Of a stretch of DNA of 64,000 nt, positions 13,502 to 23,900 are shown piece after piece (position 1 is the first letter of the stretch; each line of letters opens with the position of its first letter). Source of the DNA: Candidatus Eiseniibacteriota bacterium. GTDB taxonomy: Bacteria > Eisenbacteria > RBG-16-71-46 > DASYSL01. The notes under the pieces were generated by a model, which searched no databases, was not told where the DNA came from, and worked only from the letters and a program-made list of their open reading frames with translations. The DNA lies in NCBI GenBank assembly GCA_031431875.1, contig JANPEF010000024.1, forward strand, positions 1-64,000, written 5' to 3'. A program made the position numbers and the translations under genes.

Positions 13502-14965
13502 ATGCGCGAGCGCAGCCTTCCCCGAATCGTCGTTCTGATGCTCGTGTCCGCCCACGCGGGCGCGAGCATCGCGCTCCCGGCCGCCGCAGACGCGCTGCTC
13601 GTGCCGCAGTTCGGTGGAGTGGAAAGCGCGCGTGTCGGGCCTGCCGGCCCGTGTCTGGACGACGCACAGCGCACAGCCATCCGTGCCCGGATCGAGGTGA
13701 GCCGCGGGAAGCTCGGGCTCCGTCCCGGGCCGCTCACGACGCTCGCACCGACGGCGGTCTCTTTCGGCTGGCCGCTGCGCCTGCGCCCGGTGTTCGACGA
13801 CCCGGGCTACCACGGCATCAGCAACTTCGTGGATCACGACTTCGACTCTCCCAATCTCCTGCTCGACTACCAGTGCGGCACGCGCACCTACGACCTGAGC
13901 GGCTACAACCACTCCGGTACCGACATCTTCACCTGGCCATTCGGCTGGAGGAAGATGGACGGCGACGAGGTCGAGATCGTCGCCGCCGCCCCGGGCGTGA
14001 TCCTGTTCAAGGACGACGGAAACTTCGATCGCAACTGCGGCTTCGGCGGGGGCGACTGGAACGCCGTGTACGTGCAGCACGCCGACGGGTCGGTGGCCTG
14101 GTACGGGCACATGAAGTACGGCTCGACCATCGCCAAGGAGCCCGGTGCGCCGGTCGCGCAAGGCGAGGTGCTGGGCATCGTCGGCAGCTCGGGGAACTCG
14201 ACGGGGCCGCACCTGCACCTCGAGATCTACGACGCCGCGATGAACCTGATCGACCCGTGGAGCGGCCCGTGCAACGGGCTGAGCGCCACGTCGTGGTGGG
14301 CGGTGCAGCGTCCGTACTACGACTCGGCGCTCAACGCGCTGCGCACGCACGACGCGCCGCCGGAGTTTCCGCCGTGTCCCGCCAGCGAGATCACGCACGA
14401 GCGCGACGCCTTCGCCGGGGGCGAGCGCATCTACTTCGCGGCGTACTACCGCGACCAGCTCCAGGGCCAGCTCACGACCTACCGGGTCTACGATGCGGCG
14501 GGAACGCTCCGGGCCTCGTGGAGTGGATCGTCGGCGGTGGCGCACTACGCGGCCTCGTACTGGTACTGGTGGATCGACACGCCGCCGAACGTGCCCTCGC
14601 CGGGGTTCTGGCGCTTCGAGGCGACGTACCAGTCCACGACCGTCGTGCATCGCTTCTGGCATGGCTCGTTGACGGCGGTGCCCGGTGATCCGTCGGCGGG
14701 CGGGGCGCTCGCGCTCGCCGCGCGTGGGGCGAATCCGGCGCAGGGCGCGGTCGAACTGGATGCGACGCTGCCGGTCAGTGCAGCGGTTCGCTTGACGATC
14801 GTCGACGCGCGTGGCCGGCGCGAGGCACTGCTCGCCGACGGCTGGTACCCGGCGGGGACGCATCGCTTTCGCTGGGACGCGGCGGCGCCGGCGGGGATCT
14901 ATCTCGCGCGCCTCGAGTCGTCCTACGGCGCGGGCGTCACGCGGAAGGTCATCGTCCTCGACTGA
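13502..14965 (+). CDS. Secreted M23 metallopeptidase with C-terminal T9SS-A/FlgD-like domain
   Basis: HSGTD, YGHMK, GNSTGPHLHLE; C-terminal VRLTIVDARGR..AGIYLARL..TRKVIVLD. Confidence 0.88.
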   Translation: MRERSLPRIVVLMLVSAHAGASIALPAAADALLVPQFGGVESARVGPAGPCLDDAQRTAIRARIEVSRGKLGLRPGPLTTLAPTAVSFGWPLRLRPVFDDPGYHGISNFVDHDFDSPNLLLDYQCGTRTYDLSGYNHSGTDIFTWPFGWRKMDGDEVEIVAAAPGVILFKDDGNFDRNCGFGGGDWNAVYVQHADGSVAWYGHMKYGSTIAKEPGAPVAQGEVLGIVGSSGNSTGPHLHLEIYDAAMNLIDPWSGPCNGLSATSWWAVQRPYYDSALNALRTHDAPPEFPPCPASEITHERDAFAGGERIYFAAYYRDQLQGQLTTYRVYDAAGTLRASWSGSSAVAHYAASYWYWWIDTPPNVPSPGFWRFEATYQSTTVVHRFWHGSLTAVPGDPSAGGALALAARGANPAQGAVELDATLPVSAAVRLTIVDARGRREALLADGWYPAGTHRFRWDAAAPAGIYLARLESSYGAGVTRKVIVLD

Positions 14966-15908
14966 GCGCGTCGAGCACGAGCGCGCACATCACGCGCGCG
15001 CCGACGGCGATCGCACCCTCGTCGGCCACGAAGTCCGGTGCGTGCGGCTGGCCCGCCGTCCCACGTGCCGCATTCGACACCCCGAGCCAGAGCATGATCC
15101 CCGGTGCCACCGCCTGGAACGCACCATAGTCCTCGCTGAACCCGGGCGGGACCGTGCGCGAAACGACGAGCGCGCTGTCGCCCAGCGTCGCGCGGACGAC
15201 GACGCGGGCACGAGCCTCGAGTGCGGCATCGTTCGTGACGCCGGGGATGGCTCCGCGCGGCGCGAGCATCGTTCCCGGTTTCGTGCCGATCGTCCCGACC
15301 TCGAGCGGCGCGCAGTGGAAGGCGTAGATCGCGTGCGGCCTTCCGTCGGCGAACGCGCCGTCGGCGAGCATGGCGCGGGCGCCGTCGGCGCGCTCCTCGG
15401 CAGGCTGAAATACGAAGACGACCGTGCCCGTCAAGTCTGCGCGCAGTGGGGCGAGCGCCTCGGCCACGCCCAGCGCAACCGTCGTGTGCACTTCGTGGCC
15501 GCAGACGTGGCGCAGGCCCGGGGTGAGCGAGCGAAACGCGACGGGATCCGGCGCGTCGTCGGCGACCGCATCCATGTCGGCGCGGATCGCCACGCGCGGT
15601 CCGGGCCTCCCGCCGCGCAGCGTCGCGACGACGCCGTGGCCGCCCACGCCGGTGCGCACCTCGAGGCCGAGCGCGCGCAGGCGCGTCGCGACGACTCTCG
15701 CGGTGCGCCGCTCCGCACCCGAGACCTCGGGGTGGCGGTGAAGGTCGCGACGGATCTCGATCAGGGCAGGGGCGACGGTGCGGATCCGTTTCTCGGCGCG
15801 GGCGAGCAGGGGCGTCGGGGCGGGAGCGACGGCCACCGCGACCGGGGCCGTTGATGCCAGGGCAAGGATCGTTGCGAGAGGGGGCACGGCGAGACGGATC
15901 AGTCGCAT
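14949..15908 (-). CDS. Exported M20D amidohydrolase, apparently lacking the dimerisation domain
   Basis: RRDLHRHPEVSG, AIRADMDA, HVCGHE, FQPAEE, SEDY, PHAPDF; only 319 aa. Confidence 0.85.
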   Translation of the reverse strand: MRLIRLAVPPLATILALASTAPVAVAVAPAPTPLLARAEKRIRTVAPALIEIRRDLHRHPEVSGAERRTARVVATRLRALGLEVRTGVGGHGVVATLRGGRPGPRVAIRADMDAVADDAPDPVAFRSLTPGLRHVCGHEVHTTVALGVAEALAPLRADLTGTVVFVFQPAEERADGARAMLADGAFADGRPHAIYAFHCAPLEVGTIGTKPGTMLAPRGAIPGVTNDAALEARARVVVRATLGDSALVVSRTVPPGFSEDYGAFQAVAPGIMLWLGVSNAARGTAGQPHAPDFVADEGAIAVGARVMCALVLDALSRGR

Positions 15909-16006
15909 CGAACGAGCGTACGACGACGGCGCCCGCGGTGGCGAACGCGGGGGCGAGTGGCCGCCGGGCCGGGGTGAGCGGCCGGGGCCAGCGGCCGGGG
16001 CCGGCC

Positions 16007-16035
16007 TTGACGGGGCGCGCGGGCGGGTCTAGCCT
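16007..16035 (+). promoter_or_regulatory. Sigma70-type promoter of the cys leader
   Basis: TTGACG-N17-TAGCCT, 9 bp before leader ATG 16045. Confidence 0.7.
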
Positions 16036-16044
16036 TGAGGGGCC

Positions 16045-16128
16045 ATGAACGTGCTCCGACTCGACCACATCTGCCTCTGTCGTTGTCGCGCCCCCCGGGG
16101 GAGCGCGCGAGGCGGACGCTTGCGGTGA
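16045..16128 (+). CDS. Cys-rich leader peptide MNVLRLDHICLCRCRAPRGSARGGRLR (27 aa)
   Basis: Three Cys codons (TGC, TGT, TGT) in five codons; lies between promoter and terminator upstream of cysteine synthase. Confidence 0.8.
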   Translation: MNVLRLDHICLCRCRAPRGSARGGRLR

Positions 16129-16172
16129 GTTCGTAGCCCGGCCCAGACGCCGGACGGAATCACGAAGCCCCG

Positions 16173-16213
16173 AACGCCGCGGCTCCTCTCAACCAGGAGC
16201 TGCGGCGTTTTTT
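16173..16213 (+). terminator. Attenuator (intrinsic terminator) upstream of cysM
   Basis: 15-bp stem AACGCCGCGGCTCCT / AGGAGCTGCGGCGTT, 7-nt loop, T-run to 16213. Confidence 0.85.
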
Positions 16214-16244
16214 GTCCCAGTCGAAGACCACGAGGATCGCATCC

Positions 16245-17237
16245 ATGTCGAGTTCCCCAGCCGAGTCCTTCGTCCCCGGGCCCGAGCGTGTGCCTGCCGC
16301 GGGCCCGCGCCGCACCGGCGCCGATCTGCTCGCCCGCATCGGCGGTACGCCGTTGTTCCGCCTCGGGCGCGTCGCGCGACGCTTCGGCGGGCTGCCGGCG
16401 GGCGTCGAGGTGTGGGCGAAGGGCGAACACCTGAATCCGGGCGGCTCGGTCAAGGATCGCACCGCGCGGGCGATCATCCTCGACGCCGAGCGGCGGGGCG
16501 CGCTCGGCCCCGGACGCACGATCCTCGATGCGACGAGCGGTAACACCGGAATCGCCTATGCGATGATCGGCGCGGCGCTGGGCTACCCGGTCACCGTCTG
16601 CCTGCCGAAGAACGCGGGCCTGGAGCGACGCCGCCTGCTTGCGGCGTACGGCGCACGCATCGTCGAGACCGATCCGCTCATCGGCACCGACGGCGCACAG
16701 GAGAGCGCGCGCGCGATGGCGGCCGCGTCCCCCGCGCTGTACTTCCACGCGAACCAGTACGACAATCCGGCGAACGGGCAGGCGCACTTCGAGACCACCG
16801 GCCCCGAGATCTGGGAGCAGAGTGCGGGGCGCGTCACGCATTTCGTCGCCGGGCTGGGCACGGGGGGCACCTTCACGGGTACGGCGCGGCGCCTTCGCGT
16901 GTTTCGCGCCGAGGTGCACTGCACCGCGGTGCAGCCCGACGGTCCGCTACACGGACTCGAGGGGATGAAGCACATGCCGACCGCGCGCGTGCCCGCGAAC
17001 TGGGATCCGGCCGTGGCCAACGCGGTGCACACCGTCGCGACCGGCGACGCGCAGGCGATGACGCGCGCTCTGGCCCGCGATGAGGGCTTGCTCGTCGGCG
17101 TGAGTTCCGGCGCGAACGTGCATGCCGCACTCGAGCTGGCGCGGACGCTGCCCGCCGGCGCGGTCGTCGTGACGATCCTGTGCAACAGCGGCACGCGCTC
17201 GCTGTCCGAGCCGTTCTGGCAGGAGGCCGACGCGTGA
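16245..17237 (+). CDS. cysM: PLP-dependent cysteine synthase (CysM-like)
   Basis: NPGGSVKDR (PLP Lys), TSGNTG, NQYDN, GLGTGGT, GVSSGAN. Confidence 0.9.
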   Translation: MSSSPAESFVPGPERVPAAGPRRTGADLLARIGGTPLFRLGRVARRFGGLPAGVEVWAKGEHLNPGGSVKDRTARAIILDAERRGALGPGRTILDATSGNTGIAYAMIGAALGYPVTVCLPKNAGLERRRLLAAYGARIVETDPLIGTDGAQESARAMAAASPALYFHANQYDNPANGQAHFETTGPEIWEQSAGRVTHFVAGLGTGGTFTGTARRLRVFRAEVHCTAVQPDGPLHGLEGMKHMPTARVPANWDPAVANAVHTVATGDAQAMTRALARDEGLLVGVSSGANVHAALELARTLPAGAVVVTILCNSGTRSLSEPFWQEADA

Positions 17238-17662
17238 TCCACTTCGCCCAGGCCGCGTTCGCCGCGATACTCGCCCACGGCGAGGCCGACTTTCCGCACG
17301 AGGCGTGCGGCCTGCTCGTCGGCGTCGACGATCCCGACGGCGTGCGACGCATCGCGGTGGCGCGCGGGCTGGCCAACGTGCGCGAGCCCGCGGCGAAGCA
17401 TCACCGCTTCCTCATCGCGCCGGAGGACCTGTTGCGCGAGGAGAAACGCGTGCGTGGCGAGGGCCGCGAGATCGTCGGGTTCTACCACTCGCACCCGGAT
17501 CATCCCGCGGTGCCGTCGCGCTACGATCTGGAGCACGCCTGGCCGTTCTACTCGTATGTGGTGGTCGCCGTGCACGCGGGGAGGGCCGTCGAGGCGCTCG
17601 CGTGGCGGCTGAGTGACGATCGTTCACGCTTCGATCCCGAAGCGCTGGTGAAGGGAGACTGA
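17234..17662 (+). CDS. mec: JAB/MPN (M67) metallopeptidase, Mec-like
   Basis: PHEACGLL and GFYHSHPDHPAVPSRYD JAMM motif; GTGA overlap with cysM. Confidence 0.9.
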   Translation: MIHFAQAAFAAILAHGEADFPHEACGLLVGVDDPDGVRRIAVARGLANVREPAAKHHRFLIAPEDLLREEKRVRGEGREIVGFYHSHPDHPAVPSRYDLEHAWPFYSYVVVAVHAGRAVEALAWRLSDDRSRFDPEALVKGD

Positions 17663-17664
17663 GC

Positions 17665-19089
17665 ATGTCCGTGTCCATCCTGATCCCCGGTGCCCTGCGC
17701 GGCTTCATCGACGGGCGTGCCGAGGTGCGCGTCGAGGCGACGACCGCGGGCGAGGCGCTTGCCGCGTTGACCGCGGAGCATGCATCGCTGCGTCCGCACC
17801 TCTTTGACGATGCGGGTGTGTTGCGCAGCTTCGTCAACGTCTACGTCGGCGACGCCGACATCCGCACGCTCGCGGGAATGGCGACGCCCGTGCCCGCCGG
17901 CAGCGAAATGATGATCGTGCCGTCGATCGCGGGCGGATCGCCGCAGCCGGGGCTGACCCATGAGGAGATCGGGCGCTACAGTCGCCACCTGATCCTTCCC
18001 GAGGTCGGGATGGAGGGCCAGCAGAAGCTCAAGGACGCGCGCGTGCTGCTGGTCGGCACCGGCGGGCTGGGCGCGCCGCTCGGCATGTACCTGGCGGCGG
18101 CGGGGGTGGGGACGCTCGGGCTGGTCGACTTCGACCTGGTCGACGCGTCGAACCTGCAGCGCCAGATCATCCACGGGACGAGGGACGTCGGCCGCCCGAA
18201 GATCGCCTCGGCGCGCGATCGTCTCGCCGACATCAACCCGAACGTGAAGATCGAGACGTTCGAGACGCGACTGACAAGTGCCAATGCGATGGAGATCCTG
18301 CGCGACTTCGACATCGTCGTCGACGGCACCGACAACTTCCCCACGCGCTACCTGGTCAACGACGCGTGCGTGCTGCTGGGCAAGCCGAACGTGTACGGCT
18401 CGATCTTCCGCTTCGAGGGCCAGGCCAGCGTGTTCGGCATGCCCGACGGTCCCTGCTACCGCTGCCTCTATCCCGAGCCGCCGCCGCCGGGTCTCGTCCC
18501 GTCGTGCGCCGAAGGCGGCGTGCTCGGCGTGCTGCCCGGCATCGTCGGCACGATCCAGGCGACCGAGACGATCAAGTTGATCCTCGGCGGCGGATCGCCG
18601 CTGGTCGGGCGATTGCTCCTGTTCGACGCGTGGACGATGAAGTTCCGCGAACTCAAGCTGCAGAAGGACCCGGCATGCGCACTGTGCGGCCCGAACCGGA
18701 CCATCGACGGGCTGATCGACTACGAGGTGTTCTGCGGGATCGGTGCCGAGACGACGGCCGCCGCCGCGCCGGCGGCGATCACCGCCACCAAGCTCAAGCA
18801 GCGGATCGATGCCGGCCAGGCCGTGCAGCTGATCGACGTGCGCGAGCCGCACGAGGCCGCGATTGCGCGCATCCCGGGCGCGCGCCTCATCCCGCTCGGC
18901 GAGGTCGTCGCGCGGGCCGGCGAGCTCGACCCCTCGCGCGAGGCGGTCCTGCACTGCAAGGGCGGGACGCGGAGTTCCAAGGCGATCGCGGCCCTGCGTG
19001 ACAGCGGCTACACGGGCCCGCTGGTGAACCTGACGGGGGGGATCGGGGCGTGGTCGCGCGAGGTGGATTCAAGCGTGCCGACGTACTAG
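17665..19089 (+). CDS. moeB: Fusion of MoaD/ThiS/CysO ubiquitin-like sulfur carrier, MoeB/ThiF adenylyltransferase and rhodanese
   Basis: Ubl ending PSIAGG (GG at 17932-17937); RYSRHL, GTGGLG, SNLQRQ, CYRC, CALC; rhodanese IDVREPHE and HCKGGTRS. Confidence 0.92.
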   Translation: MSVSILIPGALRGFIDGRAEVRVEATTAGEALAALTAEHASLRPHLFDDAGVLRSFVNVYVGDADIRTLAGMATPVPAGSEMMIVPSIAGGSPQPGLTHEEIGRYSRHLILPEVGMEGQQKLKDARVLLVGTGGLGAPLGMYLAAAGVGTLGLVDFDLVDASNLQRQIIHGTRDVGRPKIASARDRLADINPNVKIETFETRLTSANAMEILRDFDIVVDGTDNFPTRYLVNDACVLLGKPNVYGSIFRFEGQASVFGMPDGPCYRCLYPEPPPPGLVPSCAEGGVLGVLPGIVGTIQATETIKLILGGGSPLVGRLLLFDAWTMKFRELKLQKDPACALCGPNRTIDGLIDYEVFCGIGAETTAAAAPAAITATKLKQRIDAGQAVQLIDVREPHEAAIARIPGARLIPLGEVVARAGELDPSREAVLHCKGGTRSSKAIAALRDSGYTGPLVNLTGGIGAWSREVDSSVPTY

Positions 19090-19123
19090 ACTGGAGCCCC
19101 GGTCCCGGCTAAGGAGTCCTTCC

Positions 19124-19609
19124 ATGTTCGCACGCCTTCTGCGCTCCGCCCGTCGTGTCGCCCTTGCGGCGCTCCTTGCGCTGGCTCTCGCGTCACCGGC
19201 GTCCGCCTGCAGTTGCCTTCCTCCGCCTTCGGTCGAAGCTTCGCGGGCGGCCAGCCACGCGGTCTTCACCGGCATTCCGATCTCCGTCGTGAGCGCGGCG
19301 CCCGAACATCCCGACGACGTGTGGGTCGCGTTCCAGGTGACGGCGATCTGGAAGGGCCCCGTCACCGCGCAGTACGCCGTGCTGACCGGCGCAACCGGGG
19401 GCCTGTGCGGCGTGGACTTCGAGCTCGGCACGGAGTGGCTGGTCTACGCGTTTCCGGTGGACGCGGACCCCGACCCCGAGGTGTTCACGCACATCTGCTC
19501 GCGGACGGCCCGGGCCGCGGGCAATCCCGACATCGAGGCGCTCGGCCCGCCCCTGTCGACGCCCGCGCTCGCCCGCAGCTGGGGCCTGGTCAAGGCCATC
19601 TACCGCTGA
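19124..19609 (+). CDS. Secreted TIMP/NTR-like protein with C-terminal SWGLVKAIYR tail
   Basis: AAGGAG RBS; signal peptide ASA then CSC; AVFTG, CGVDF, EWLVYA, CSRT motifs of bacterial NTR-like proteins. Confidence 0.75.
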   Translation: MFARLLRSARRVALAALLALALASPASACSCLPPPSVEASRAASHAVFTGIPISVVSAAPEHPDDVWVAFQVTAIWKGPVTAQYAVLTGATGGLCGVDFELGTEWLVYAFPVDADPDPEVFTHICSRTARAAGNPDIEALGPPLSTPALARSWGLVKAIYR

Positions 19610-19648
19610 TCCGTCACGATCTTGCGGGGTGCGATCATCTCCATCCGC

Positions 19649-19692
19649 TGGACACCGCCTTCCCCGGTATGCATACTAAGTATCTAACCGGG
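19649..19692 (+). promoter_or_regulatory. Promoter with imperfect inverted repeat (probable PadR operator)
   Basis: TGGACA-N17-CATACT; CCCGGT..ATACT-A-AGTAT..ACCGGG overlapping the -10. Confidence 0.55.
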
Positions 19693-19700
19693 AGAGTGTC

Positions 19701-20228
19701 ATGTCCGTCCGCCACAGCCTGCTCGCGCTCCTCGCCGAGGAGCCCACCCACGGGTACGGCCTCAAGTCGAGCTTCGAGAAGAGCACCGCCGGCGCCTGGC
19801 CGCTGAACGTGGGCCAGGTCTACACGACGCTCGCGCGCCTCGAGCGCGACGGCCTGGTCGAGAGCGACGCCGGGGGCGACGAGGAGCGGAGCACCTGGCG
19901 CCTGACGCGTGCGGGCCGCGGCGAGCTCGCCGCGTGGTACGCCGCCCCGGTCGACGACCACGCGGCGCGCGACGAGCTGGCGATCAAGGTGCTGGTGGCG
20001 CTTGCCGCCGGCTCGGTCGACGTCACGCGCATCCTCCAGGCCCAGCGCAAGGCCACGCTCGAGCGGCTGCAGGAGTGGACGAAGTCCAAGCGCCACGCCG
20101 ATCCCGAGGCGGATCTGGCGTGGCTCCTGCTGCTCGACGCGCTGATCCTCAAGGCCGAGGCCGAGGTGAAGTGGCTCGACCTGTGCGAAGAACGCCTGCG
20201 CCGTCGGCGCGGCCGGGCGCGGTCATGA
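19701..20228 (+). CDS. PadR-family transcriptional regulator (long, with C-terminal helical domain)
   Basis: LLALLAEEPTHGYGLK, GQVYTTLARLERDGLV, RDELAIK. Confidence 0.92.
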   Translation: MSVRHSLLALLAEEPTHGYGLKSSFEKSTAGAWPLNVGQVYTTLARLERDGLVESDAGGDEERSTWRLTRAGRGELAAWYAAPVDDHAARDELAIKVLVALAAGSVDVTRILQAQRKATLERLQEWTKSKRHADPEADLAWLLLLDALILKAEAEVKWLDLCEERLRRRRGRARS

Positions 20229-20935
20229 GTGCGGTCGCCGTGCGAACGCGCGACGCTCTGCGCTTCGCTGCCGTGACGAAGGTCCACGGCACGGGCGCCA
20301 CCGCAGTCCGTGCGCTCGGCCCCGTGAGCTTCGCCGTCGAGGCGGGGGAGTTCGTCGCCATCATGGGTCCGTCGGGTTCGGGCAAGTCGACGCTCCTGTC
20401 ACTGGCCGGCGCGCTCGACGTCCCGACCGGTGGAAGCGTGTCGATCGACGGGCGCGATCTCGCGGGCCTCGATGCCGGGGCGCTCTCGGCGCTGCGGCGG
20501 CGCACGATCGGCTACGTGTTCCAGGACCTGAACCTGCTGCCGGGGCTCACCGCCTGCGAGAACGTGGCGCTGCCGCTCGAACTCGACGGCGTGCCGCTGG
20601 CCAGGGCGCGCGCCGCGGCCGAGGCGGCGCTCGCGGCCGTCGAGCTGGCGGCACTCGCCGGGCGCTTTCCCGACGACCTCTCCGGCGGCGAGCGCCAGCG
20701 CGTGGCGATCGCGCGCGCGTTCGTCGGCCCGCGCAGCCTGACGCTGGCCGACGAGCCGACGGGCGCGCTCGACTCGGTCACCGGCGAGCGCGTGCTCCAG
20801 CTCCTGCGCGCCCAGTGCGAGCGCGGCCTCACCGCCGTGCTGGTCACCCACGACGCGTCGCATGCGGCATGGGCCGACCGCATCCTGTTCCTCCGCGACG
20901 GCGCGATCGTCGACGAGACGCGGCCGCGCGCGTGA
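20225..20935 (+). CDS. ABC transporter ATP-binding protein (LolD/MacB-type)
   Basis: GPSGSGKS, LSGGERQRVAIARA, LADEPTG, VTHD. Confidence 0.95.
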   Translation: MSAVAVRTRDALRFAAVTKVHGTGATAVRALGPVSFAVEAGEFVAIMGPSGSGKSTLLSLAGALDVPTGGSVSIDGRDLAGLDAGALSALRRRTIGYVFQDLNLLPGLTACENVALPLELDGVPLARARAAAEAALAAVELAALAGRFPDDLSGGERQRVAIARAFVGPRSLTLADEPTGALDSVTGERVLQLLRAQCERGLTAVLVTHDASHAAWADRILFLRDGAIVDETRPRA

Positions 20936-23900
20936 AGGCCGTCGCATTGCGCGCGCTCCTGCGCGTCGAGTTGCGGCAGCTCGCGCGTCACCCCGGCCGC
21001 GCCTGGCTCCTGGTCGCGCTCGTCGCGGTCCCGGTCGCCGCCGTCTCCGGCGGCGGGACGATCCTGCGCGGCATGGCCCCGACGGCCGAGGAGCGTCGGG
21101 CCGAGGCGATGGGGCGCGCCGACCTCGTCGTCGACGCGCCGCGCGGCTACGCCGACGTCGAGCGCGCGCTCGCGCTCCTGCCGCCCGGGTTCCGCACGGA
21201 ACGCGTGATCACCGGCATGGAGGAGGTGCGCGTGCCGGGTCGCGTGCTGCGAGCGAGCCTGGTCGCCGTCGACTCGGCGGGGCTGGGCGTGGACGGCCTG
21301 GCGCGGGGCTTCGTGGCGGTGACCGCCGGCCGTGCACCCGCCAATGCGGGCGAGGTCGCGCTGTCGCCCGTGCTGCTGGCGGGCCTGGGCCGCAGGGTCG
21401 GCGATACGGTGACGCTCGCATACGGAACGGCGCGCACCATCACCGGCGTGGTCGTCACGCCCGAGGCGCTCGACGCGCCGCTCGTCGTGCGCACCCCGGC
21501 GATCGTCGAGGCGCGCGGCGGCGAACGGCTGTTGGTGACTCCGGCGCCGGACTCGGGGACGGTCGCCGCGCTGCGCGCCACCGGACTGGCCGTGAGCTTG
21601 CGCGCCGAGGTGCAGGCCCCCGACGACGCGATCGCCGTCGCGGTGTTCCTGCTGGGCAGCATCGGCTTCCTCGAGGCGGCACTGGTGATCGCCGCGGCGT
21701 TCGCCGTGACGCTGCGTCGTCGGCAGCGCGACATCGGGCTCCTCGGCTCGGTCGGCGCCACGCGCGGGGGAATTGCGCTTGCGCTGATCCTCGCAGCCGC
21801 CGGGATCGGCGGGGCGGGCGCCGGGCTCGGGCTCGTCCTCGGTAACGGGATTGCGCTCGCGCTCCAGCCCTTCCTCGACGGCTGGACGGCACGCGCCAAC
21901 GGACCGTTCGACCTCTCGCTCGTCCATGCCGCCGGCGGCGCGATCCTCGGCGTGCTGACGGCCGCGGGCGCCGCCGCGTTGCCGGCGCTGCGCGCGGCCT
22001 CGTTGCCGGTGCGCGTCGCGCTGGGCGCCCGCCGTCCGGAGTCGACGCCCGCGCGGCACTGGCTCTTCGCGGGGCTCGCGCTCACGGCCGTTGCCGTCGC
22101 GCTCATGTTCCTGCCGCGCTCGGCGCCGCTTGCCGCGACCGGCGTGCCCGCCATCGGCGGGGCCGTGCTGGCCATCCTCGGCTTCGGGGCGATCAGTCCG
22201 TGGTTGCTCGACGCGTTGGCGCGCCGCGCCTCGGGTCTGCCGCTGCCGTGGCGCCTCGCGGTGCGCGACGCAGGTCGCGCCCGCACGCGCAACGGCCCGG
22301 TGGTCACGGCGATCCTCGCGGGAATGGCGATGTCGGTGACGCTGGCCGCGATCATCTCGAGCGTCGAATCGGCCCTGTCGGCGTACCCGGCGCAGTATCG
22401 TGCGGACCAGGTCCTCCTCGAGGGCGCCGGCGCCGAGATCGTCGCCCGCGCGCTCGTCGCCGACCCCGCCGTGCCGCGCGCGATCGCGGCGGCGCCCCTG
22501 CGCGTGGCGTACGCCAACGGGATGCCGATCGTGGCCCGCCTCGCGGGTGTGGGAAAGAGCGTGGGGCAGCGCGAGCCGTGGATCGCCGTCGGCGACACGA
22601 CGTTCCTGCGCGCGGTGGGGGCCGAGTCGGGGGTCGACGCGCTGGCGGCCGGACGCGTGCTCGCGCTCGATGCGCCGCCGCCGGTCGCAGGCGTCGGTGC
22701 CGTGCTGCTCCTGACCGTCGGGCGCGATGGCACGTCGCTCGACCCGCCGGCCCTCGAGCGGGTCCCCACGGGCCGCCGCGTGGTCGGGCCGGCCTTCGTG
22801 CTCTCCCCGGCTGCAGCGGAGCGCGCCGGATTCGAGACGGCCCCGCCGCCGCGTCGCGGGCTTGCCCCATGGCTCGTGCGCTACGCCGCGCCGGTGGACG
22901 CTGCCGTGCTGACGCGCGCGCGCCTCGCCGCGGAGCGCGTGCCCGGGACGACCGTCGATGCCGCACTTGTGCAACGCGCGCCGTCGCGCGGGATCTATCG
23001 CGCCGTGCTGCTGCTGTGCCTGCTGACCGGCCTGGTCGTCGTGCTCGTCGCCTCGGCGCTGTCGGCCGCCGAGTCCGACGGCGACGTGCGTGCGCTCCAC
23101 ACGGTGGGCGCCGCGCCCGGGGTGTTGCGCGCCTATCGTGCCGCGCGTGCGGGCTACCTCGCGCTCGTCGGCTGCGTGCTCGCCGTGCCGGCGGGGCTCG
23201 TGCCGGCGCTGCGCATCCTGTCGAACGCGAACGTGGACCTCGCGTTCGTCATGCCCTGGCGAGACGTGCTGCTCGCCGTGCTGGCCCTGCCGACGATCGC
23301 ATACGCGGTGGCGTGGACGTTCGGGCGCGGCGGGCGCGTCCGGCAGCGTGCGGGTGCGGTGTTGCTGCTGGTGCTGGCGTGCGCACCCGCCGCGCGGGCA
23401 GCCGGGGCCCCGACGCCGCGTTGGGAGACGTACGTGGGTCGTGCCGTCGACGGCCGGCCGCTCGCCGGGGAGCTGGGTCGCATCCGCGTTCCCGAGAGCC
23501 ACGCTCGCGCCGACGGGCGCACGATCGAGGTCGCGTTCGTGCGCTACCGCACGACCCATCCGCATCCGGGTCCGCCGATCGTGTTCCTCGAGGGCGGGCC
23601 CGGCGTGTCGGGCGTCGCGGGTGCGGCGCACCCGGCGACCCATCCGTTCGTGCGCCTGCTCGAGCATGCCGACGTGATCGGGATCGACCAGCGCGGCACG
23701 GGGCTCAGTCGCCCGGATCTCGCGACGCCCGACTTCGCCTGGACGCTGCCGCGGAATCGCGCGCCCCGCCGCGACGACGAACTCGCCGCGTTTCGCGGCG
23801 CAGCGACGCGCGCCGTGGCGCACTGGCGGGCCCGCGGCGCCGACCCGGCGGCTTACGACACGAACGAGAGCGCCGACGACGTCGACCTCGTGCGCGCCGC

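Follow-up and report, generated by a model that had tools for sequence, protein, structure and literature searches.

The DNA considered here (the window, 64,000 nt of contig JANPEF010000024.1) belongs to a metagenome-assembled genome (MAG) of Candidatus Eisenbacteria, hereafter G000. The question raised by one of its loci is whether a short open reading frame (ORF) with three clustered cysteine codons, located just upstream of a cysM-mec-cysO/moeZ operon, allows the translating ribosome to decide on transcription of that operon. Cysteine synthesis is costly and surplus cysteine is toxic, and, to our knowledge, cysteine sensing by bacteria outside the model phyla is largely unknown. The analysis described below indicates that the element is likely a ribosome-mediated transcription attenuator of the trp type, with charged tRNA-Cys as its signal, and that the operon would respond to cysteine. 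An earlier note on this DNA had set its proposal of such an attenuator in an actinobacterial frame, which is not applicable, as the host is a member of Candidatus Eisenbacteria.

On the forward strand, the features of the locus are arranged in the order that an attenuator requires: a promoter, the Cys-codon ORF, a hairpin followed by U6, and the Shine–Dalgarno (SD) sequence and ATG of cysM (Table 1). The promoter TTGACG-N17-TAGCCT, the 27-aa ORF with the C-L-C-R-C motif, and the terminator with a T-run before cysM were all found where the earlier note had placed them. The terminator hairpin consists of 16 pairs (16172–16187 with 16195–16210) closed by a loop at 16188–16194, and its stem runs into the T6 run. 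It has a predicted folding energy of −30.3 kcal/mol (shuffle mean, −14.4 kcal/mol; z, −6.31), and none of the 200 dinucleotide shuffles folded as well. The terminator at 16172–16213 was not called by a pattern scanner, perhaps, as a guess, because its stem reaches into the T-run. A 43-nt spacer, which contains a small hairpin, separates the leader ORF from the terminator hairpin. The nearest upstream gene (14949–15908), coding for an M20 amidohydrolase, is found on the opposite strand and is divergent; therefore, the hairpin is not its terminator. A search of positions 15000–21000 against Rfam (cmscan, E-values up to 10) gave five matches, all far below the gathering score, and the only one over the leader was BcKCsr2 (15.9 bits versus a gathering score of 40; E-value, 3.8).

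Table 1. Coordinates of the leader elements and of the operon genes in the window.
Feature	Position	Strand	Remarks
−35 box, TTGACG	16007–16012	+	Read from sequence; invariant in the three orthologous loci
−10 box, TAGCCT (TANNNT type)	16030–16035	+	17-nt spacer after the −35 box; 9 nt 5' of the leader ATG
Leader ORF, 27 codons, MNVLRLDHICLCRCRAPRGSARGGRLR	16045–16128	+	Stop TGA at 16126–16128; frame, length and stop kept in G001 and G002
Putative regulatory Cys codons TGC, TGT, TGT (codons 10, 12, 14; C-L-C-R-C)	16072–16086	+	Unchanged in orthologues
Segment 1, 5' strand of the anti-antiterminator helix	16059–16094	+	Holds the Cys codons; pairs with 16099–16130 in the ribosome-free minimum free energy fold
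Segment 2	16099–16133	+	Holds the leader stop codon; pairs with segment 1 or, via 16109–16133, with the terminator 5' arm
Small hairpin CCGGC/GCCGG in the antiterminator loop	16138–16153	+	Predicted fold
Segment 3, terminator 5' arm (16172–16187) and antiterminator 3' strand	16171–16190	+	Folding
Segment 4, terminator 3' arm (16195–16210) and T6 run (16208–16213)	16195–16213	+	Folding
cysM SD, GAGGA	16232–16236	+	8 nt 5' of the ATG; conserved in orthologues
cysM-like PLP (pyridoxal phosphate)-dependent cysteine synthase, 330 aa	16245–17237	+	Pfam PALP, 2e-65
mec-like JAMM/JAB peptidase, 142 aa	17234–17662	+	Pfam Prok-JAB, 2e-24
cysO-moeZ fusion, 474 aa (ThiS-like, ThiF, rhodanese)	17665–19089	+	ThiF, 1.2e-83; Rhodanese, 1.5e-15; ThiS, 2.2e-4

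For folding, the nascent transcript was ended at the terminator loop, and the ribosome was represented by a footprint of 30 nt. These folds replaced full-length equilibrium folds, which failed to separate the ribosome states. Three alternative helices are thermodynamically feasible and have comparable energies: −35.4 kcal/mol for the isolated helix of segments 1 and 2 (1:2), −36.1 kcal/mol for 2:3 together with its inner hairpin, and −30.3 kcal/mol for 3:4. Without a ribosome, 16059–16094 is predicted to pair with 16099–16130, which buries the Cys codons and leaves the terminator 5' arm free. A ribosome with its A-site on Cys codon 10 or 14 covers segment 1, and 16109–16133 is then predicted to pair with 16171–16190 through the sub-helices GAGG:UCUC, GGA:UCC, GCU:GGC, GCGGU:GCCGC, and GUUCG:CGAAC. 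With the A-site on the stop codon, the footprint (16111–16140) masks segment 2, and the terminator 5' arm is again predicted to be free. The mean probability that this arm pairs with segment 2 in G000 is 0.05 without a ribosome, 0.93–0.95 with a ribosome at the Cys codons, and 0.04 with a ribosome at the stop codon; the corresponding values for G002, one of two congeneric genomes with an orthologous locus, are 0.02, 0.55–0.58, and 0.00. The modelled folds of G000 follow the logic of the trp attenuator, those of G002 point in the same direction, and those of the second congener, G001, do so weakly.

The ribosome masking and stalling logic set out in the earlier note was thus reproduced, in that the footprint-constrained nascent folds of G000 switch the terminator 5' arm as proposed. 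The antiterminator given there (16122–16133 with 16171–16180) is predicted as well; it turned out to be only the lower part of the longer, interrupted helix 16109–16133/16171–16190, and its lowest 5 bp are not conserved. Two features add to that earlier account, namely the strong 1:2 helix that buries the Cys codons in the absence of a ribosome and the degenerate U-tracts of the orthologues.

The proposed mechanism would proceed as follows. A ribosome would load on the 5' end of the presumably leaderless transcript and translate the 27-codon leader, with RNA polymerase transcribing ahead of it. When Cys-tRNA is plentiful, the ribosome would reach the TGA at 16126–16128 and place its footprint over segment 2 (16109–16133), and, after release of the ribosome, segment 1 (16059–16094) would recapture segment 2. 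With segment 2 either masked or recaptured, the arms 16172–16187 and 16195–16210 would pair and, together with U6, end transcription before cysM. When Cys-tRNA is scarce, the ribosome would stall at codon 10, 12, or 14 and cover segment 1, so that segment 2 would pair with 16171–16190 before the 3' arm of the terminator is made, and the polymerase would read through into cysM, mec, and cysO-moeZ.

How a ribosome might start on the leader is suggested by the promoter region. The −35 box, the 17-nt spacing, and a −10 box of the TANNNT type are kept in both orthologues (TAGAAT and TAGCTT there), and the DNA upstream of the −35 box is divergent and gapped in the three-way alignment. The promoter at 16007–16035 was not called by a consensus pattern scanner, because TAGCCT agrees with TATAAT at only three of six positions. 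The only SD-like string before the leader ATG, GAGGGG, is too near the ATG to function as an SD. Judging from the position of the −10 box, transcription would start about 3 nt before the leader ATG or at the ATG itself. Enrichment of TANNNT at 6–9 nt before start codons is a signature of leaderless mRNAs, and such an enrichment was observed genome-wide in G000: TANNNT occurs 56, 24, 14, and 31 times at 6, 7, 8, and 9 nt before start codons, respectively, against about seven times at other spacings. This count is based on 5237 long ORFs, a crude set in which the first start codon was used and spurious ORFs are included. The leader −10 box, 9 nt from the ATG, lies within the enriched range, and a leaderless leader mRNA is therefore plausible. 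We infer that the leader ORF is translated, probably from a leaderless or near-leaderless mRNA.

Comparison with G001 and G002, whose CysM proteins are 87% and 89% identical to that of G000 and which are likewise MAGs labelled Candidatus Eisenbacteria, bears on the role of the Cys codons. A conserved Cys-codon ORF upstream of orthologous operons, which the earlier note had suggested looking for, is present: both loci keep the start, length, and stop of the leader ORF and all three Cys codons. In the three-genome alignment, codon 9 encodes I, T, or P, codon 11 encodes L or A, and codon 13 encodes R or, in G001, C. This last replacement gives G001 a fourth Cys (C-C-C), whereas G000 and G002 have the C-x-C-x-C pattern with no adjacent Cys. 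The covered Cys codons are also unchanged in the strain-variant DNA contigs X5 and X7, which come at low depth from two other metagenome studies. One variant contig has 15 mismatches over 16006–16131 (126 nt), which alter codons 3, 4, 9, 11, and 13 (R to Y) and include a silent substitution in codon 19; none of its listed changes falls in the three Cys codons.

At the nucleotide level, the three genomes do not differ at all in a 49-nt block that stretches from the last Cys codon through the stop codon and comprises the end of segment 1 together with segment 2. For comparison, the longest invariant run in the 993 nt of cysM is 28 nt, and 63% of its third codon positions are invariant. This block exceeds what coding constraint alone explains, and the Cys codons are located in a helix; both observations suit a different reading, in which the leader is a ligand- or protein-binding RNA switch, or a Rho- or NusG-dependent attenuator, and the short ORF with its Cys codons is incidental to a conserved RNA structure. 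The degenerate U-tracts of the orthologues could likewise indicate factor-dependent termination. Such invariance would, on the other hand, be expected where the same nucleotides both code and join two alternative helices, and the overlap of coding with 1:2 and 2:3 pairing accounts for it. Codons 10, 12, and 14 encode Cys even where codon 13 has changed from R to C or Y, the leader matches none of the Rfam families, and unrelated cysM leaders in other phyla (see below) share only the Cys run, pointing to the codons as the functional feature. An RNA switch of this kind is thus considered improbable.

Several results weigh against the element being a ribosome-mediated transcription attenuator. 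In the full-length equilibrium folds, the terminator was formed in every ribosome state, and therefore any switch must be kinetic, that is, co-transcriptional. In G001, the terminator arm is paired with segment 2 with a mean probability of 0.60 already without a ribosome, compared with 0.57–0.71 at the Cys codons and 0.14 at the stop codon, which gives a poor switch contrast. The lowest 5 bp of the G000 antiterminator (GUUCG:CGAAC) are lost in both orthologues, where CGAAC is replaced by CAAGAC and the predicted register shifts to CUUG:CAAG and GCGAG:CUCGC. The percentages of paired cells in the three-sequence alignment are high (96.6% for the terminator with the 1:2 helix and 91.9% for the antiterminator, compared with 36–57% for slid controls), and they are biased upward, since the tested structures were derived from G000. 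The covariation score was matched by 329 of 500 shuffles for the terminator with the 1:2 helix and by 345 of 500 for the antiterminator, in an alignment of three sequences with most pairs invariant; the segment 1 helix taken separately has 96–97% of cells paired, with no informative covariation. As the Cys codons alternate and sit inside segment 1, RNA pairing could add to their conservation.

The U-tracts of the orthologous terminators belong to the same side of the balance. The terminator stems of the orthologues are kept, with G-U pairs changed to G-C, and in G002 the small loop hairpin is lengthened to 8 bp through changes in each of its strands. The U-tracts after the stems (TTTTGGCTTG and TCTTCGCTTG) are weaker than that of G000: the tract of G002 (UUUUGG) is weak, and G001 (UCUUCG) has almost none. 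Given these poor U-tracts, intrinsic termination in G001 and G002 may be inefficient or may require a factor; termination at the hairpin, which would be expected in G000, is doubtful in G001. The poor U-tracts would also fit translational attenuation of the mycobacterial type, in which a leaderless Cys-rich ORF opens a structure that hides the cysM ribosome-binding site and the hairpin is structural instead of being a terminator. The leaderless poly-Cys short ORF architecture resembles that described in the accessible text of Canestrari et al. (10.1101/834739), and seven cysM loci from the survey described below have Cys-rich ORFs abutting cysM with no strict terminator. In G000, a perfect U6 comes after the hairpin, and the cysM SD, 22 nt past the hairpin, is not part of the terminator or antiterminator helix in any predicted fold; only a weak local 4-bp hairpin (GGAU with AUCC) overlaps it. 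Based on these results, translational control is an unlikely explanation of the G000 element, and transcription attenuation is preferred.

The distribution of the element is narrow, which is a further point against attenuation, and the element looks lineage-specific. When the 175-nt leader was compared by blastn with 102 genomes of the order, G000, G001, and G002 were the only ones to match it over its full length. Shorter GC-rich fragments of the leader (about 21–53 nt; E-values, 2.5e-4 to 0.0097) were matched in 24 other genomes and were rejected as chance. A CysM-like match at an E-value of at most 1e-60 was found in 16 of 41 relatives, and it was orthologous only in G001 and G002; the remaining matches are at most 58% identical and have no such leader. 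The relative-genome counts include the unpublished genome G007, and no positive claim is based on it. Among the 80 loci retrieved with the CysM query from public genome contigs, only two were orthologous, and these are G001 and G002 themselves (L048 and L047, respectively); among the 80 retrieved from metagenome contigs, the best identity was 66%, and no orthologous leader was found. The nearest CysM relatives, those of the Vicinamibacterales (L049, L062, and L128; 66–68% identity), were inspected and have no Cys leader, and therefore cysM regulation differs even among close relatives of the enzyme. L128 is a metagenome contig, and its assignment to the Vicinamibacterales is based on its near-identity to L062. 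Expression data complete this side of the argument: of sixteen sequencing runs, two were metatranscriptomes (shares, 0.07 and 0.05), and each of these contained a single match of 36–37 nt with 6–7 mismatches, inside or next to cysM, which was not taken to derive from this organism. Neither run gave evidence of a transcription start site, of a 3' end at 16213, or of leader translation.

Two side observations concern the same relatives. Three of the five congeners (G003, G004, and G005) have a CysM-like gene that is only 54–58% identical, with no leader match, and G000, G001, and G002 are the only genomes of the genus in which the cysM-mec-cysO/moeZ operon was found together with its leader; the G003 and G005 genomes are 53% and 81% complete, respectively. 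In L049, L062, and L128, a TTGACA-N17-TAGCGT sequence is found close to cysM.

Whether Cys-run leaders precede cysM in other lineages was examined in 160 loci of CysM homologues (47–89% identity) from genome and metagenome contigs, 144 of which had at least 200 nt of upstream sequence. A short ORF with at least three Cys in five residues was found on the forward strand of 29 of the 144 loci, and 11 of the 144 also had a strict hairpin with a T-run after the Cys run. In the reverse complement control, the corresponding counts were 7/144 and 1/144, and in the mononucleotide shuffle control, 3/432 and 1/432. A similar picture was seen for the first 78 usable loci, with Cys-run ORFs in 19 on the forward strand, in five on the reverse complement, and in 5 of 390 shuffles. 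The 29 loci are not independent, as they include at least five duplicate records and several close kin; inspection of the list by eye, with no computed clustering, distinguished about 12 leader types, about five or six of which have a terminator.

These controls also bear on whether the Eisenbacteria element has any regulatory role. The short ORF could have arisen by chance in GC-rich DNA between two genes, beside a constitutive partial terminator or an RNA-stabilising hairpin: spurious ORFs are common in GC-rich DNA, the element is confined to three closely related genomes, and the two metatranscriptome runs yielded no usable evidence of expression. The reading frame, Cys codons, promoter, and hairpin are, on the contrary, conserved above the level of cysM, and the combination of a Cys-run ORF with a terminator is rare by chance, both in the survey controls and in G000, where only 2 of the 78 strict terminator-like sites (both strands) are preceded by a short ORF with at least three Cys in five residues. 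An element with no function is thus highly improbable. The second of those two G000 sites (C116:31619–31823) was rejected as a candidate, as it lies antisense inside a 185-aa ORF.

Leaders bearing a terminator were found, in addition to Eisenbacteria, in Acidobacteriota (L055, L134, and L136), in three or four groups of Chloroflexia/Chloroflexota (L059/L060/L142, L061, and L106, with L108 added by a looser rule), and in the metagenome contig L158, which passed the strict terminator rule. Across phyla, the leader peptides are unrelated in sequence except for the Cys run. Footprint folds of L106, L059, L136, L055, and L061 were mixed and gave no clean switch contrast; therefore, a shared architecture, and not a shared mechanism, is claimed for these five loci. 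Taken together, the leaders raise the possibility that Cys-codon leaders, many of them with terminators, arose independently many times before cysM(-mec-cysO-moeZ) of the CysO-thiocarboxylate type, forming an uncatalogued, widespread, ribosome-sensed cysteine regulon that extends the mycobacterial "Cys ribulon" far beyond Actinobacteria and has a leaderless sensor in the Eisenbacteria lineage; we hold the chances of this to be about even. If so, the nascent 5' end would be the loading site of the first ribosome, and coupling of this ribosome to the polymerase under its control would be obligatory.

Two groups of surveyed loci have further peculiarities. In L106, L061, and L108, the Cys-run leader ORFs hold GGCTGGCC ... 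GGTCAGCC, the same words that form the downstream terminator stem; a layout with duplicated arms is typical of 1:2 / 2:3 / 3:4 attenuators. L069, L083, L084, L086, L092, L167, and L172 have in common a very Cys-rich short ORF (..CC(C)YAY.KRHC(C)CRCRR..), which ends 4–55 nt before the cysM match and is followed by no strict terminator in any of the seven. Five genome-contig records of this group are titled Blastocatellales or, probably through mislabelling, "Heliomicrobium". These ORFs may represent a translational-coupling variant of Cys sensing.

The classical leader-peptide attenuators are trpL, hisL, pheL, leuL, thrL, and ilvL of enterobacteria. Like the cysM leader in its predicted form, they combine a short ORF, in which codons for the end product are clustered, with alternative 1:2, 2:3, and 3:4 helices of which 3:4 is an intrinsic terminator, and a stop codon placed so that the terminating ribosome masks segment 2. 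The cysM leader differs from them in the amino acid sensed (cysteine), in the operon (cysM-mec-cysO/moeZ), and in the host (Candidatus Eisenbacteria); in addition, its mRNA is probably leaderless, and its codons alternate as C-x-C-x-C and form no run. By its features, the cysM leader would thus qualify as a candidate member of the trp-type attenuator class. According to the accessible text of the literature, attenuators of this class have been described for trp and ilvB of Actinobacteria (Seliverstov et al. 2005, PMC1262725) and for ilvB1 of M. tuberculosis (PMC13236596).

Three published systems in which cysteine codons are read by the ribosome were compared with the cysM leader, on the basis of the accessible parts of the respective papers. 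In M. smegmatis, leaderless poly-Cys short ORFs attenuate translation via SD sequestration, and the mechanism at other mycobacterial poly-Cys loci was left open by the authors (Canestrari et al. 2020, 10.1101/834739). Like the mycobacterial Ms5788A and Rv2334A described there, the cysM leader is an unannotated Cys-codon first cistron of a cysteine-metabolism operon, leaderless in the mycobacterial case and probably so here, for which sensing of Cys-tRNA by ribosome pausing is proposed. In the mycobacterial locus, as reported in that part of the paper, an RNA duplex sequesters the downstream SD, whereas the cysM leader has a predicted terminator with U6 between the ORF and cysM, and its SD is outside the switching helices. 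The two also come from different phyla and share no sequence similarity, and the mycobacterial criterion of at least two consecutive Cys codons, as given there, separates G000 and G002, which have none, from G001 with its C-C-C. Having neither consecutive Cys codons nor predicted SD sequestration, the G000 element does not belong to the mycobacterial class of translational attenuators.

The uORFC-8-2 motif, a Cys-Cys upstream ORF with an intrinsic terminator, was predicted upstream of cysS in Rhodobacterales (Brewer et al. 2021, PMC8632094, accessible text). Both it and the cysM leader are predicted ribosome-mediated attenuators in which the first stem contains conserved Cys codons and a U run comes after the terminal stem. 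As far as the description in that text allows a comparison, they differ in the gene (cysS for cysteinyl-tRNA synthetase versus a cysM-like gene), in the Cys codons (tandem codons 14–15 versus the non-tandem codons 10, 12, and 14), and in the host, uORFC-8-2 being alphaproteobacterial. Short ORFs with runs of Cys codons before cysteine-biosynthesis genes were reported from comparative genomics by Seliverstov et al. 2005 (PMC1262725); in the accessible text, these Cys leaders have no conserved terminator hairpins, and Rho dependence is suggested. A predicted terminator and antiterminator distinguish the cysM leader from them. In the accessible text of Naville and Gautheret 2010 (PMC2965389), cysteine is mentioned only in a reference.

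A literature search that covered few subscription papers and no supplements found neither a Cys-leader terminator/antiterminator before cysM-mec-cysO nor any attenuator in Eisenbacteria. The earlier note, which knew of no classic terminator/antiterminator before a CysM-Mec-CysO/MoeZ operon, agrees with this result. The trp-type design is textbook knowledge, and Cys versions of it are already in print for other genes; what appears to be new is its occurrence at the cysM-mec-cysO operon and in the Eisenbacteria lineage. If the proposed mechanism holds, an uncultured candidate phylum, represented here by what is probably a soil or sediment bacterium, would gate the CysO sulfur-carrier route through a ribosome reading three Cys codons. 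Along with the Cys-run leaders of Acidobacteriota and Chloroflexota, the element suggests that regulatory short ORFs of this class are under-annotated. Such leaders are candidates for RNA and small-ORF annotation pipelines and might serve as a marker of cysteine-regulated genes in metagenomes. The compact switch, about 170 nt long and simple to test, would also be suitable for the study of leaderless translation coupled to transcription.

The description of the downstream genes as a CysM-Mec-CysO/MoeZ operon is correct by Pfam and NCBIfam. The cysM product matches the NCBIfam models cysKM (1.6e-92) and cysM (1.9e-90), both under the curated cut-offs. The GTG start codon of mec overlaps the cysM stop codon (GTGA). 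The product of the cysO-moeZ ORF matches the NCBIfam models MoeZ (7.2e-155) and SAMP1 (5.2e-12); its ThiS-like domain ends in ...SIAGG (AGG being residues 89–91) and is followed by the linker SPQPGLT and then by the ThiF and rhodanese domains. Since the Gly-Gly end of CysO is internal to the fusion, cleavage is needed for release of the carrier, and presumably the adjacent JAMM peptidase Mec releases CysO from MoeZ. The clustered Cys codons of the leader match the predicted operon products, namely an enzyme resembling cysteine synthase, a peptidase of the JAMM type, and a sulfur carrier fused to the enzyme that activates it.

A 161-aa ORF (19124–19609, forward strand) is located 35 nt past cysO-moeZ, with AAGGAG ahead of it, and may share the operon transcript. 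No Pfam or NCBIfam match was obtained for its product, which has a signal-peptide-like N-terminus followed by C-S-C-L-P-P-P.

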